Position numbers and translations under genes: made by a program. Under the pieces are notes generated by a model that saw nothing but the letters and a program-made list of their open reading frames with translations, was not told the DNA's origin and searched no databases. From Escherichia phage Turkey3, in sequence record PQ471515.1: a stretch of 64,000 nucleotides of DNA; one strand, 5' to 3'. Positions within the stretch are counted from its first letter, which is position 1. Each line of letters opens with the position of its first letter. Shown in pieces: positions 27,835-39,853 of this stretch.

Positions 27835-28110
27835 ATGCGTTCATTTGAAAACTTAATCGGTAAACTTCGCTTACAAGAAATTGAAGCTGATGTGAAGGAA
27901 TTATCTGAAACTAAGAGTTACATTCATTTAGATGAACTGTTTATTAAGTACGGTGAGATTGGTTTTAAGTCATTATTTGTTTTTGTCATGAAGGTGCATA
28001 GTTTAAAGTACTTTGATTTGAGTTCAAAAGACGGACAACCAAATCTGTATTACATGTATTATCTTAAGAACATAGACGAAGCTAATACATTATTCTTAGA
28101 ATATATGTAG
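27835..28110 (+). CDS. hypothetical small protein
   Basis: ORF track 27808-28110; start moved to MRSFENL after AAGGAA. Confidence 0.45.
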   Translation: MRSFENLIGKLRLQEIEADVKELSETKSYIHLDELFIKYGEIGFKSLFVFVMKVHSLKYFDLSSKDGQPNLYYMYYLKNIDEANTLFLEYM

Positions 28111-28119
28111 GGGTAAAAA

Positions 28120-28458
28120 ATGGAACAACATTTTGAATTAATTAATAAGGTATCATTTTATGTAGTATCGTTAATTTGGGTGTATTACATGTTTGGTTAC
28201 ATTATTGCATTCTTCCGATACACGACCTTGTATCAACGCATATACTACGATGCACCAATTTCATTTTTGATGTTCTGTGCATGTACGTGGGGGATAATTG
28301 AAGCACTGGTATGTGGATATAGTACGGACGAATTAAATCTCGTATCGGTGTTGACATTACTAACAATTGCTACTATGATAGCTACAGTTCCGATATTTTT
28401 GCTCTTTAAACTGCTTCATCGCATCGATGAGTGGCGTAATAAAATCCCTGAAAAGTAA
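28120..28458 (+). CDS. small 2-TM membrane protein, paralog family (array 1)
   Basis: 112 aa; hydrophobic segments; basic C-terminal tail. Confidence 0.6.
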   Translation: MEQHFELINKVSFYVVSLIWVYYMFGYIIAFFRYTTLYQRIYYDAPISFLMFCACTWGIIEALVCGYSTDELNLVSVLTLLTIATMIATVPIFLLFKLLHRIDEWRNKIPEK

Positions 28459-28461
28459 GGA

Positions 28462-28809
28462 TTGATAATGATTTTTTACACTAATGCGTTTGCTTATGCC
28501 GTTGCATCAATCTACATTGTGTACTTCTTATTTGGTGGAGTACTGTACTTCTTTAAGTACAAAACATTGTTTAACCGAATGTATCCAAATCATCCAATTG
28601 TAGTAGTACTTTTGATGATTTCTGTTGCTCACATCATTGTAGAAACAATAATGGGTATCAGTGCAGTACATTACAGTCTAGGTACTATTGTAATTATTAC
28701 TATGATCATCGCATACATTTTAGTAATGGGTTCTGGTTTATTTGGGAATGTAGCAATGAAAATGTATAATCGAATCAAAACATTACGTGATAATCTACCG
28801 GAGCGTTGA
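28462..28809 (+). CDS. small 2-TM membrane protein, paralog family (array 1)
   Basis: 115 aa; tail RIKTLRDNLPER. Confidence 0.6.
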   Translation: MIMIFYTNAFAYAVASIYIVYFLFGGVLYFFKYKTLFNRMYPNHPIVVVLLMISVAHIIVETIMGISAVHYSLGTIVIITMIIAYILVMGSGLFGNVAMKMYNRIKTLRDNLPER

Positions 28810-28810
28810 G

Positions 28811-29155
28811 ATGTATAATTTAAATTTAATATCATATATCATAACAACACTGTTTACTTTCTATGCCTTTGTTGGTATACTCCTACTGTACTTTAAATTT
28901 TATAAACTCTTTGACCGTTTTTATCCGTCATTAGAACATGAATTCTTATTAGTGATGTACATCTGTCTAACGTTTATGTCTACATTTTTCACTGCATCTG
29001 ATGGTATCATTGGTATTAAAGCTGAAGAACCAAATGGGAGTACGCTTGTTGCCTTTATTCTGGTAGGATTTTTCAGTACTTATATTACCTTTATTTCAGG
29101 ATGTACCGTGATTGATTATCTTGTGAAATTACGAGATAAAATGCCAAATCGATAG
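28811..29155 (+). CDS. small 2-TM membrane protein, paralog family (array 1)
   Basis: start at MYNLNL; tail LRDKMPNR. Confidence 0.55.
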   Translation: MYNLNLISYIITTLFTFYAFVGILLLYFKFYKLFDRFYPSLEHEFLLVMYICLTFMSTFFTASDGIIGIKAEEPNGSTLVAFILVGFFSTYITFISGCTVIDYLVKLRDKMPNR

Positions 29156-29164
29156 GGGATTGCT

Positions 29165-29422
29165 ATGTTTGCATTGCGTAATAAAAACACAAAAGAGATT
29201 CTATGTATCTCAACAGTATGGGATTGTGCAGGAAGTGAAATGATTCTCGAAGAAGGTTCAGGTGATTGTGTTTATGTTGTTCAGGATCGTCGCGAACTGG
29301 AATCATTACTTGACGAATTTAATGCTGGTGGAAATCCTAAAAGTACTCAATTCCCTGAGATCAGGAATCCAGCACCACCAGGCTCTTATGAAATTCTACA
29401 ACTGTGGGAGATGGATAAGTAA
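29165..29422 (+). CDS. hypothetical small protein
   Basis: 85-aa ORF. Confidence 0.5.
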   Translation: MFALRNKNTKEILCISTVWDCAGSEMILEEGSGDCVYVVQDRRELESLLDEFNAGGNPKSTQFPEIRNPAPPGSYEILQLWEMDK

Positions 29423-37413: not shown

Positions 37414-37752
37414 ATGCTTGAGTTTTTTAATTCAGATACAATGCTTAGTATTACTTTGATTTATCTGTTTGGTTTTTTCTTTTATCATGCACTAGTTGTA
37501 GTACTATGGTATTTTAAAAAGAAAATCGTTTTCAAACTGTATCCTGATGGAAACATTTCACTACTTCTTTTCACTATTATCCAAGGTATGTTTGCAATTG
37601 TTGGTCTTATCGCACACTTAATTTATTGTGCTAATCCACAGTTGAACTCAATATCACAATATATTGTATTCCTTGGATTACTAATTTGGGTGCTGATATA
37701 CTTGTTTAATCTCATCATTAATGGTAGAGCAAAAATTCGTGGGGACTTCTAA
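37414..37752 (+). CDS. small 2-TM membrane protein, paralog family (array 2)
   Basis: 112 aa, hydrophobic segments, basic tail. Confidence 0.6.
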   Translation: MLEFFNSDTMLSITLIYLFGFFFYHALVVVLWYFKKKIVFKLYPDGNISLLLFTIIQGMFAIVGLIAHLIYCANPQLNSISQYIVFLGLLIWVLIYLFNLIINGRAKIRGDF

Positions 37753-38099
37753 TGTTTGAATCTTATCTTGAGTTTTTAAAGAGTAGTTCTGTTGCACATT
37801 CAATTGCAGGGATTATTCTAACAGGTTATGTAACATTTTGGGTAGTTATGTTTCTAGGATGGTATTTTAAACGACAATTCTATAAGCGTAATGGTGAAGA
37901 TTTTATGAATTCTTTCGTTAATCAATCGTTGTTTGCATCAACATTGATAGCATGTATTGTAGCAACACTCACAGGAAAGGTACTGCCAGCATTCTCCGCA
38001 GTTTACGGTACATTGGGTATGATATGTGTAGTTTTTTACTTGATCATTAAACTTTGTTGTGTTATGATTGACCTTCGAAACAAGATACCGGAGGAATGA
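37752..38099 (+). CDS. small 2-TM membrane protein, paralog family (array 2)
   Basis: 115 aa; tail IDLRNKIPEE matches array 1. Confidence 0.6.
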   Translation: MFESYLEFLKSSSVAHSIAGIILTGYVTFWVVMFLGWYFKRQFYKRNGEDFMNSFVNQSLFASTLIACIVATLTGKVLPAFSAVYGTLGMICVVFYLIIKLCCVMIDLRNKIPEE

Positions 38100-38434
38100 T
38101 GGAATATTTTTTACACTTACTGCCGTGGTATATGAAAGTTAGTACTATGTACTATATTCTTAGTGCTGGATTCTACTTTCTGATGTGGTTCTTCAAACGA
38201 CCAATTTCAGTATTCATCTCTGATAACATGCTGCAATTAAAATTACACGCATGGTTTTTTATGGCGATGTTTATGCCTATTATTCACTACTCAATGATTA
38301 GTAGAGGTTTACGTTCTAATGGTGAACCAATTATATTAGTATTCTATTGGGGTTCAACTATTGCATATGTAAGTTTGTTGTTGATCCCAGCCGTTCATAA
38401 ATTACGTGCTAAAGTTCCTGATGCGAGGTACTAA
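38096..38434 (+). CDS. small 2-TM membrane protein, paralog family (array 2)
   Basis: 112 aa; tail HKLRAKVPDARY. Confidence 0.6.
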   Translation: MMEYFLHLLPWYMKVSTMYYILSAGFYFLMWFFKRPISVFISDNMLQLKLHAWFFMAMFMPIIHYSMISRGLRSNGEPIILVFYWGSTIAYVSLLLIPAVHKLRAKVPDARY

Positions 38435-38748
38435 TGGATATCTTAACATTGATTTACACGTTGTATTCATTCTATTTTATTATGTGTTGGGTTGGATTTT
38501 TATTTGTACTGAAGATGTTTGATTATGTTGAAAAACAGATAAAAGAATTTTGTATTCCTTTTATTGGGTCAACCATTATTAGTATTACTTGTTTGTATTA
38601 TTTGGTATGTGATCCACCTGATGATACAGCTATGATTGATTTCATGTTATTGCCAACAACTGTTATTTTTTTATGTAGTCTGATGCCACCGATTAGCCGT
38701 GGACTAACTGAATTTAGACGCAATCAAAAGCGTAAACGAGGGATGTGA
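38434..38748 (+). CDS. small 2-TM membrane protein, paralog family (array 2)
   Basis: 104 aa; basic tail. Confidence 0.6.
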   Translation: MDILTLIYTLYSFYFIMCWVGFLFVLKMFDYVEKQIKEFCIPFIGSTIISITCLYYLVCDPPDDTAMIDFMLLPTTVIFLCSLMPPISRGLTEFRRNQKRKRGM

Positions 38749-39116
38749 TGGAAATTGCACTTATTATATTAACTGCTATGTTGTTTATTAGTACAATTGT
38801 TATTATTGGCAAGTTCTTCTGTGTATCCTTCTTGGAAACCGTATACGATGAAATTGCTGATGATTATGAATTACATGCGGGATTTTTTACTACGTATTGG
38901 ATTAGTTTATTACTACTTATCACTGTATGGATTTTACATATATTCAAATGGGGTATGGTAGATGGTGATCCAGTACTGGCAATTATCTGTGTAGTGTTTG
39001 GTCTACTCGGTGGTGCTGTCCATAATCTGATGGTAATTTGGCAAACCGTACAATATGTATTAGTTCCACATTTTCAGAGAATGCACCAAAGCATCAAATA
39101 CCGCAAACGAGGATAA
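38745..39116 (+). CDS. small membrane protein, paralog family (array 2)
   Basis: 123 aa; basic tail. Confidence 0.6.
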   Translation: MMEIALIILTAMLFISTIVIIGKFFCVSFLETVYDEIADDYELHAGFFTTYWISLLLLITVWILHIFKWGMVDGDPVLAIICVVFGLLGGAVHNLMVIWQTVQYVLVPHFQRMHQSIKYRKRG

Positions 39117-39117
39117 C

Positions 39118-39480
39118 ATGAATAATATTGAATTATCTTTTATTGGTCAATTAATGGTAATGGCGTATACATTTATCTTCTCACTGAATGCATTCGTGTG
39201 CATTGGGAAGTACTTCCATAAGCGACCATTATCAAATATATATGATGTAATACAAAGGAGATATAGTCCAGCATATACTGTGTTGAGTACAGCATTCAAT
39301 TTTGGTTTTATTCTAATGCTGGTTTCATTATTAACATCGAGTTCGAATTTTATAACATTTGGTATTATGGTATGTTCACTAACACTGTGTGTGGTTATTC
39401 TCTGTGCATCCGTTGAGTTGCTGGCATGGATGTATAATAAGATTTCCGAAATCCATGAGCGTTTAGGTAAGAGGAACTAA
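39118..39480 (+). CDS. small membrane protein, paralog family (array 2)
   Basis: 120 aa. Confidence 0.6.
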   Translation: MNNIELSFIGQLMVMAYTFIFSLNAFVCIGKYFHKRPLSNIYDVIQRRYSPAYTVLSTAFNFGFILMLVSLLTSSSNFITFGIMVCSLTLCVVILCASVELLAWMYNKISEIHERLGKRN

Positions 39481-39481
39481 A

Positions 39482-39853
39482 ATGAGTTATCGTGAAATAT
39501 TTTCGATCATTACTATTATTGTGTTTAGTTTAGGTTCTTTGATTTGGTTATTGTATTACTTCTGTGTAACCCCAGTATATAATATGCTAAATTCAGTTCG
39601 CTCTGATGTTGGTATTGTTTCTTTTATTATCTTCATGGCATATTATATGCTAAGTATCACAGGTTTGGTTTCGGTTGTTATCTTTGACCTTGGACCGAAT
39701 CAAGATGGCATGGAGATGTGGGAATTGATAACGATGTTTGCATGTATGATACCTGCATTTGGTGTATGTGCTGGTGTATTTTATGGGTTGTGTAAAGGTG
39801 TGAACTACTTAAAAAATATCCACAATACTATTCGTAAAAAACGTATGTTATAA
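39482..39853 (+). CDS. small membrane protein, paralog family (array 2)
   Basis: 123 aa; basic tail. Confidence 0.6.
   Translation: MSYREIFSIITIIVFSLGSLIWLLYYFCVTPVYNMLNSVRSDVGIVSFIIFMAYYMLSITGLVSVVIFDLGPNQDGMEMWELITMFACMIPAFGVCAGVFYGLCKGVNYLKNIHNTIRKKRML

Follow-up and report, generated by a model that had tools for sequence, protein, structure and literature searches.

Two tandem arrays in an Asteriusvirus jumbo phage encode one diverged family of small membrane proteins with three predicted transmembrane helices

Two described phage systems come closest to the proteins considered here. T4 Imm is a small inner-membrane protein with two transmembrane (TM) helices, the product of a single-copy gene, which is made early, does not form part of the virion and acts at the envelope. 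Class I holins of the lambda S105 type cross the membrane three times in an N-out/C-in orientation and end in a charged, cytoplasmic C-terminal tail. In a 64,000-nucleotide stretch of Escherichia phage Turkey3 (PQ471515.1), analysed at its full length and hereafter called the window, ten small genes arranged in two tandem arrays encode proteins which share features with each of these systems. By profile comparison, the ten genes are members of one highly diverged family specific to Rak2-like jumbo phages, and each product is predicted to have three TM helices, an N-out/C-in topology and a basic cytoplasmic C-terminus. Size, number of TM helices, orientation and the charged tail resemble those of class I holins; unlike these, the family has no match to any holin family, stands behind early-type promoters, lacks an adjacent endolysin or spanin gene and comprises ten paralogues. 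T4 Imm offers a working analogy for its function, with which both the promoter type and the absence from the virion mass spectrometry (MS) table of phage phAPEC6 are in agreement, although the family differs from Imm in having three TM helices, ten paralogues and no match to PF14373.

Members of this family have already been deposited as hypothetical or 'putative membrane' proteins. The Cronobacter phage GAP32 genes GAP32_522, 523, 525, 526, 526A and 527, which were recruited by our family hidden Markov model (HMM), carry the label 'putative membrane protein, 3 transmembrane domains', the homologues of Pectobacterium phage CBB were deposited under the same label, and all genes of both arrays are annotated as 'hypothetical protein' in Escherichia phage BF17. 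The report on CBB mentions 22 paralogous open reading frames (ORFs) without detail in its main text (PMC5259590). In PHROGs the same family is split into at least nine families of unknown function (19285, 19454, 19046, 27396, 33258, 26405, 27618, 16874 and 19792). Genes without known function make up 83% of the phAPEC6 genome and more than 80% in Rak2-like jumbo phages. In the literature we found no paper characterising the proteins of this family and no functional study of them, nor any source treating them as one paralogous superfamily or giving their topology, their position adjacent to a nucleoside triphosphatase (NTPase) gene or their early-type promoter. What is new in the present analysis is the unification into one family, together with its topology, position and regulation.

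Judged by nucleotide identity, the window derives from a jumbo coliphage of the genus Asteriusvirus, in the 121Q/Rak2-like group. Over the region 27800-40000 it shares 98.8% identity with BF17, an Asteriusvirus of 383 kb, and has weaker matches to 121Q, PBECO4-type phages and phAPEC6. A plus-strand block of many small genes extends up to 39853; beyond it, 17 minus-strand genes form a convergent block, and the products of most of them start with MLPF. Comparisons were made with the Rak2-like loci of BF17, 121Q, phAPEC6, fEgEco12, JNE01, RaK2, Munch, GAP32, XbC2, Hallingskeid and one metagenomic contig. The preliminary description of this region had reported ten small plus-strand genes in two tandem arrays, and all ten ORFs (m1 to m10) were found where it had placed them, with products of 104-123 amino acids (aa) also after correction of the starts. 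Four starts are better set a few codons downstream according to the BF17 annotation and the Shine-Dalgarno positions, namely those of m2 (28468), m3 (28811), m6 (38099) and m8 (38748). Array 1 consists of m1 (28120-28458; 112 aa, tail WRNKIPEK, matching phrog_19285 with E=1e-48), m2 (28468-28809; 113 aa, ATG start with an alternative TTG at 28462, tail LRDNLPER) and m3 (28811-29155; 114 aa, ATG start with GGAG 7 nt upstream and an alternative GTG at 28787, tail LRDKMPNR). Array 2 opens with m4 (37414-37752; 112 aa, tail RAKIRGDF, phrog_19454), whose stop is overlapped by the start of m5 (37752-38099; 115 aa, tail LRNKIPEE), the hub of the family, assigned to phrog_19046 with cross-hits to 19454 and 16874. 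There follow m6 (38099-38434; 111 aa, tail AKVPDARY, phrog_27396), the weakest-linked member m7 (38434-38748; 104 aa, tail NQKRKRGM, phrog_33258 with a weak match to 16874), m8 (38748-39116; 122 aa, tail SIKYRKRG, phrog_26405), m9 (39118-39480; 120 aa, tail HERLGKRN), which clusters with m8, and m10 (39482-39853; 123 aa, tail IRKKRML, phrog_27618).

Pairwise BLASTP and phmmer searches among the ten proteins were significant only for m1-m2-m3 (E=7e-13 for m1-m2, and 1e-7) and for m4-m5 (E ~1e-4), and since these searches joined no other members, profile methods were adopted. In PHROGs the ten proteins are spread over at least seven families, nine of them matching their own family with E=1e-46 to 1e-60 or, for m3, with E=1e-3, and m9 matching only weakly. 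Full-length cross-hits connect these families: m1 matches the family of m5, m5 that of m4, m5 and m7 both match phrog_16874, and m9 and m10 match the family of m8. Iterative HMM searches covered every six-frame ORF in the window and in the matching loci of 121Q, RaK2 and JNE01. Starting from three independent seeds, they converged on the same 39 proteins, among them all ten, with no other ORF at E<=10. No reversed or shuffled decoy was recruited in these searches, the best of them reaching E=0.045. With Munch, GAP32, XbC2 and Hallingskeid added, the set grew to 68 members, and all ten proteins match the 68-member HMM with E=1e-16 to 1e-22. A profile search of 1.84 billion representative proteins returned 41 matches, all of 89-127 aa and most of them matched near full length; the named members among these 41 representatives all come from Rak2-like jumbo phages.

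An independent view of the relationships was obtained with hhalign, run between separately built orthologue-group profiles with reversed profiles as controls. Probabilities of 94-97% were found within the group formed by m1-3, m4, m5 and m6 (95-97% for array 1 against m4 and m5 and for m4-m5, with m4-m6 at 95% and m5-m6 at 96%), and m8/9-m10 reached 94%. Bridges over 83-102 columns joined m5 to m8/9 (68%), array 1 to m8/9 (52%), m5 to m7 (45%) and m8/9 to m7 (38%). The reversed controls had a median probability of 0.3%, and none exceeded 11.8%. At the level of these profiles two subfamilies are robust: subfamily A, comprising m1-m6, with the tail R-x-K-[ILMV]-P-[DE], and subfamily B, comprising m8-m10, with the tail H/R-x-x-I-K/R-K-R. 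The homology between A and B, as well as the membership of m7, is moderately supported by the alignments and is reinforced by the same length and topology, the phenylalanine at the end of TM1, the R/H in the tail helix and the shared arrays. The paralogy proposed in the preliminary description thus holds on iterative HMM searches, hhalign and decoys, at moderate strength for the A-B bridge and for m7. The opposite view, that the ten ORFs are unrelated hydrophobic low-complexity or filler sequences joined by composition, is refuted. It could appeal to the many pairwise comparisons that are not significant and to the m7 group, the only one that did not extend from its own seed in the iterative search. 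Against it stand the complete absence of recruited decoys, the contrast between 94-97% within subfamilies and at most 11.8% in reversed controls, the restriction of the matches in the 1.84e9 proteins to 41 sequences of 89-127 aa, the near-invariant phenylalanine at the end of TM1 and ratios of nonsynonymous to synonymous substitution (dN/dS) of 0.10-0.48, leaving it a negligible probability. T4 nrdC.7 and nrdC.9, neighbours of nrdC.10, and RB69ORF104c were also tested and are not members of the family.

A Kyte-Doolittle scan placed three hydrophobic segments in each protein; for m6 the threshold was passed by TM3 alone, yet m6 aligns with the family across all three. The AlphaFold2 model of m1, with a predicted local distance difference test score of 76, consists of helices 2-31, 35-41, 45-64 and 74-107 (74-89 plus 91-107), and the annotators of GAP32 assigned three TM segments to the homologues with TMHMM and Phobius. 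Summed over the ten proteins, lysine and arginine number 4 in the N-terminus, 26 in loop 1, 5 in loop 2 and 42 in the C-terminal tail, which adds up to 68 on the predicted cytoplasmic side and 9 on the periplasmic side, as the positive-inside rule would have it, and both the N-terminus and loop 2 are acidic. This concentration of K and R in loop 1 and the tail argues for an N-out/C-in orientation of the three helices, and on these predictions the basic C-terminus of every family protein is cytoplasmic. Of the two or three helices suggested earlier, three are thus favoured by hydropathy, model and charge distribution, and the designation as two-TM proteins does not stand. Within the helices, TM1 ends with an invariant or nearly invariant phenylalanine (58/68 in the wider set), and TM2 has small residues at i/i+4 spacing (profile positions 57 and 61).

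The basic tail that had been noted before is likewise a feature of the whole family, with R or H at position 106 of the profile in 64/68 members, followed by x-K-(I/L)-(P)-(D/E)-(K/R), although some of the motif (PE, RG, KR) overlaps in the DNA with the Shine-Dalgarno sequence of the gene that follows. At 7/9 junctions in the window between a member and the following gene, the final one to three tail codons (PE, GD, PEE, AR, RG, RG, KR) contain this sequence, so that the extreme C-terminus is dual-coded. The R/H-x-K-(I/L) core sits upstream of the Shine-Dalgarno sequence, and P(D/E) is kept in some proteins for which the latter falls in non-coding sequence (m1 and RaK2 11207); part of the tail motif is therefore a real feature of the protein.

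Inside the arrays the genes are separated by -4 to +9 nt, with overlapping stop and start codons at several junctions, an arrangement that implies two tightly packed, translationally coupled operons. Upstream of array 2 lies the gene of a P-loop (AAA-type) NTPase homologous to T4 NrdC.10 (36576-37346, plus strand; 256 aa), which is a conserved neighbour: in every Rak2-like locus examined it is found directly before the array or one ORF apart. Queried against IMG/VR, the NTPase protein matched only 121Q and RaK2. Between the NTPase gene and m4, a stretch of 67 nt (37347-37413) contains a hairpin, AGTACTAC-CATAGT-GTAGTACT, over a weaker promoter-like site (TTGACA-17-TACTAT), and hence array 2 may also have its own start there. 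In the stretches examined, array 2 holds seven copies in the window, BF17, phAPEC6, fEgEco12 and XbC2, eight in JNE01, RaK2 and 121Q (one of the latter frameshifted), six in GAP32 and three in Munch; Hallingskeid and L011 have about 10-11 each. A second site with one to three family members exists in several of the compared phages. Copies within a genome are at most about 30% identical, except for a pair at 49% in 121Q and another at 42% in RaK2; apart from these two pairs, such divergence indicates that they are old. In 121Q, the m7 orthologue (12186-12510) is frameshifted into two ORFs, one corresponding to the N-terminal half of the family profile and the other to its C-terminal half, and an extra m4-like copy lies at 10837-11178. 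Variable copy number, occasional younger duplicates and a frameshifted copy are consistent with birth-and-death evolution.

Around array 1, the ORF at 27835-28110, with which the region of the preliminary description begins, encodes a soluble protein outside the family. Two small proteins encoded just upstream of the array (26731-26982 and 27410-27823) have, as read from their sequences, hydrophobic N-termini resembling signal peptides; the fEgEco12 orthologue of the first is annotated as 'lytic conversion lipoprotein', no canonical lipobox was seen in it and PHROGs lists it under unknown function. Between the arrays, the ORF 30650-30901 encodes an 83-aa hydrophobic protein with about three hydrophobic segments which is not a family member, and no PHROG or Pfam match was found for it.

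Compared with their neighbours, the genes of the family diverge rapidly. Orthologue identity amounts to 62-91% with 121Q, 24-53% with JNE01 and 23-37% with RaK2, against 96%, 59% and 70%, respectively, for the NTPase. For six members (m4, m5, m6, m7, m8 and m10), RaK2 has reciprocal-best partners in collinear order. The dN/dS values against 121Q, obtained for nine orthologue pairs, lie between 0.10 and 0.48 and that of the NTPase is 0.04, so that the genes are functional, if less constrained than the NTPase gene. On these substitution patterns they are under purifying selection and diverge several-fold faster than their neighbours. The variation is unevenly distributed along the proteins, with orthologue identities of 43% in TM1, 38% in loop 1 and 36% in both N-terminus and tail, as compared with 26% in TM2, 21% in loop 2 and 22% in TM3.

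Several of these traits could suggest that the paralogues are subunits of a hetero-oligomeric inner-membrane complex, possibly including the NrdC.10-like NTPase, which might serve as a machine or scaffold for replication, transport or assembly. The constant proximity of the NTPase gene, the coupled translation implied by overlapping stop and start codons with gaps of -4 to +1 nt, the long retention of each paralogue indicated by six collinear reciprocal-best orthologues in RaK2 at only 23-37% identity and the small residues at positions 57 and 61 of TM2 all fit such an assembly. A fixed stoichiometry is, however, hard to reconcile with copy numbers that range from 3 in Munch to 10-11 in Hallingskeid and L011, one copy being frameshifted in 121Q. 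Moreover, T4-type phages have NrdC.10 with no member of the family beside it, the second array belongs to a different operon at a distance of 8 kb, and conserved gene order is common among related phages and a weak sign of interaction. On balance we regard a complex of this kind as unlikely. Slightly less probable still is the more specific possibility that the paralogues and the NTPase would build an early, phage-specific multi-subunit membrane machine in the form of an ATP-driven gate or scaffold. If such a machine existed, it would control crossing or assembly at the membrane of the jumbo-phage-infected cell, and the arrays would be more than a set of independent exclusion factors.

Both operons are preceded by a cassette in which an intrinsic terminator and a sigma-70 promoter are combined. 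The 35-nt element, AAGGGTTGACTTCGGTC(A/G)GCCCTTTTTGCTATAAT, occurs in six plus-strand copies in the window, where none is expected, and is built from a GC hairpin (AAAGGGTTGAC-TTCG-GTCAGCCCTTT, then TTTTTGCTATAAT) with its T-run, the -35 box TTGACT lying within the stem and being followed by an extended -10 (TTGACT-18-TG-TATAAT). The copies (AAGGGTTGACTTCGGTCRGCCCTTTTTGCTATAAT) are located on the plus strand at 20712, 27349, 31646, 32369, 33753 and 36513, with weaker ones at 12234 and 24306. An exact copy at 27349-27383 (promoter 11/12, extended -10) heads the unit 27410-29802, which contains array 1, and the copy at 36513-36547 heads the unit formed by the NTPase gene and array 2. Among ten related loci read, nine have the cassette before the NTPase gene, XbC2 presenting there only a weaker TTGAC/-10-like sequence, and in Hallingskeid the stem is kept through compensatory changes. 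The promoter-early stem-loops (PeSLs) of T4-type phages are described as composite promoter-terminator motifs (PMC2839356, PMC4122927). The window cassette resembles them in its hairpin, T-run and predicted sigma-70 promoter, in recurring between genes of the early region and in bracketing an insertion; it differs from these PeSLs in its sequence and in its carrier, a Rak2-like jumbo phage. The insertion in question, a segment of about 1.6 kb (32147-33813), carries between the cassette copies at 32369 and 33753 a gene (32446-33744) whose 432-aa product contains five tandem repeats of about 85 aa each. This segment, which is lacking in the equivalent BF17 locus apart from the matching cassettes, looks like a cassette-mediated insertion.

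The presence of consensus sigma-70 cassettes before both operons suggests that both arrays are expressed early. In the CBB genome, RpoD-like promoters were placed in the small-ORF region, which was itself regarded as early and concerned with host takeover (PMC5259590). The T4-type late motif TATAAATA was found twice in the window against 12.5 expected, and none of its copies is near the arrays. Both copies (23877-23884 and 25119-25126) lie just upstream of plus-strand genes (23917-24300 and 25148-26659) whose phAPEC6 orthologues, gp037c and gp035c, are virion proteins, and they are probably T4-type late promoters inside an early-looking block. Conversely, the annotated phAPEC6 orthologues of the family (gp012c-017c and gp028c-029c) are not listed in the virion MS table of that phage.

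These data bear directly on whether the proteins could be holins, antiholins or pinholins which time lysis, part of what had been proposed for them. Their build of about 105-125 aa with three TM helices, N-out/C-in, and a charged C-terminal tail resembles that of class I holins. SAR-type (signal-anchor-release) endolysins usually work with a pinholin. The endolysin of Rak2-like phages, encoded elsewhere as a gene of its own (121Q gp532), begins with a SAR-like TM domain (PMC5259590) and would suit such a partner. Nevertheless, searches at lenient thresholds with the ten proteins and 29 relatives yielded no Pfam holin family (E<=1) and no holin PHROG (E<=0.1), and the best holin matches in BFVD had E ~3, its nearest models being CBB proteins with scores that were not significant. 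Further arguments against lysis timing are the sigma-70 early-type promoters with no TATAAATA nearby, the lack of an endolysin or spanin gene in either operon and the unprecedented number of ten copies in two operons. In fEgEco12, in addition, the authors report a holin in the genome and annotate the array genes only as 'hypothetical protein'. A holin-like role is thus unsupported, and we consider it highly improbable.

Array 2 ends at a bidirectional intrinsic terminator (39859-39885), a perfect 12-bp stem beyond which lies the convergent MLPF block of RCC1-like genes; the adjacency across a terminator recorded in the preliminary description is therefore correct. This border has the appearance of a boundary between two modules, one early and one structural. 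Most MLPF genes carry a repeated intergenic cassette of their own upstream, GCCAGTACT..GTACTGGC with a T-run followed by GATTAAATATAGTATAAT; on the minus strand, for genes between 44085 and 58970, it comprises the hairpin GCCAGTACTnnGTACTGGC, the T-run, GATTAAATATAGTATAAT and AAAGGAGG, as exemplified at 45204-45290, 47433-47520 and 56542-56630. Since this cassette lacks the -35 TTGACA, it belongs to another promoter class than the cassette of the membrane operons. The phAPEC6 virion MS table includes the RCC1-like gp003-010. Adjacency of the array and the RCC1-like block recurs in JNE01, Munch, XbC2, Hallingskeid and L011, and in RaK2 no minus-strand ORF of at least 80 aa was found in the 6.8 kb after its eight-gene array. 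The propeller paralogues have diverged beyond the reach of tblastn. A functional link between the membrane proteins and the beta-propellers, tempting as it had seemed from their position, was consequently removed as unsupported, given that the MLPF genes are convergent, possess their own GATTAAATATAGTATAAT cassette, encode proteins found in the phAPEC6 virion and are missing next to the RaK2 array.

With regard to function, we favour the view that the proteins are diversified early factors acting on the envelope, of the exclusion or immunity type, and assign to it a rough probability of 0.35. This preference is based on the analogy with T4 Imm and on the putatively exported proteins encoded beside array 1. 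According to this proposal, host RNA polymerase would make the proteins at the start of infection, and they would insert into the host inner membrane and act there as a diversified set of host-takeover factors at the level of the envelope. The conserved TM1, the juxtamembrane basic loop and the amphipathic, basic C-terminal tail might serve insertion or a common cytoplasmic contact, and the fast-evolving TM2-loop-TM3 hairpin might confer target specificity. The likeliest output would be superinfection exclusion or immunity, that is, a block on DNA entry or on envelope damage by later phages, as with T4 Imm, multiplied here into paralogues with different targets. An early exclusion or immunity role at the envelope, one of those named in the preliminary description, is compatible with all that was seen.

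Four considerations weigh against exclusion or immunity. No homology links the family to exclusion: neither the ten proteins nor the 29 relatives match Imm_superinfect (PF14373), and no member of the family matches any family with a labelled function. An Imm homologue was also sought in the window with a Hallingskeid gene annotated as 'superinfection immunity protein', and none was found, that annotation itself being below the Pfam threshold. Between Asteriusvirus and RaK2 the order and identity of six paralogues are conserved, and start and stop codons overlap; both features would fit co-assembling subunits as well as independent factors. Early timing is deduced from promoter motifs only, and in the literature we found no transcriptome for Rak2-like phages. 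Finally, small TM proteins generally evolve fast, and the rate alone is no proof of an arms race.

The same set of traits could also be explained if the paralogues served in counter-defence or host shutoff, each of them binding and neutralising a different host inner-membrane protein through helix-helix contacts. Such targets could include membrane-acting abortive-infection effectors, transporters or proteins of division or envelope synthesis. Early-type promoters, absence from the virion proteome, a fast-evolving TM2-loop-TM3 region and variable copy number fit this possibility as well as they fit exclusion, and m5 matches phrog_16874 (E=3.8e-6), a family which PHROGs places in its category 'moron, auxiliary metabolic gene and host takeover'. 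On the other hand, the family shows no similarity to any PADLOC or anti-defence entry; nothing in the sequence separates counter-defence from exclusion. We view counter-defence as a possible, if rather doubtful, alternative to the exclusion or immunity role favoured above.

Overall, at least nine PHROG families of unknown function collapse into a single family of proteins with three predicted TM helices, whose topology is defined, whose genes are conserved in position and whose promoter is of early type. Rak2-like jumbo phages include therapy candidates against E. coli, Klebsiella, Salmonella and Erwinia, and the family constitutes a compact set of candidates for the remodelling or guarding of the host envelope at the start of infection. 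Carrier-state persistence has been reported for virulent phages in papers that mention Asteriusvirus. The exclusion of competitors in cocktails, persistence in the carrier state and resistance to membrane-acting host defences are traits that depend on envelope functions of the kind which these proteins may provide.

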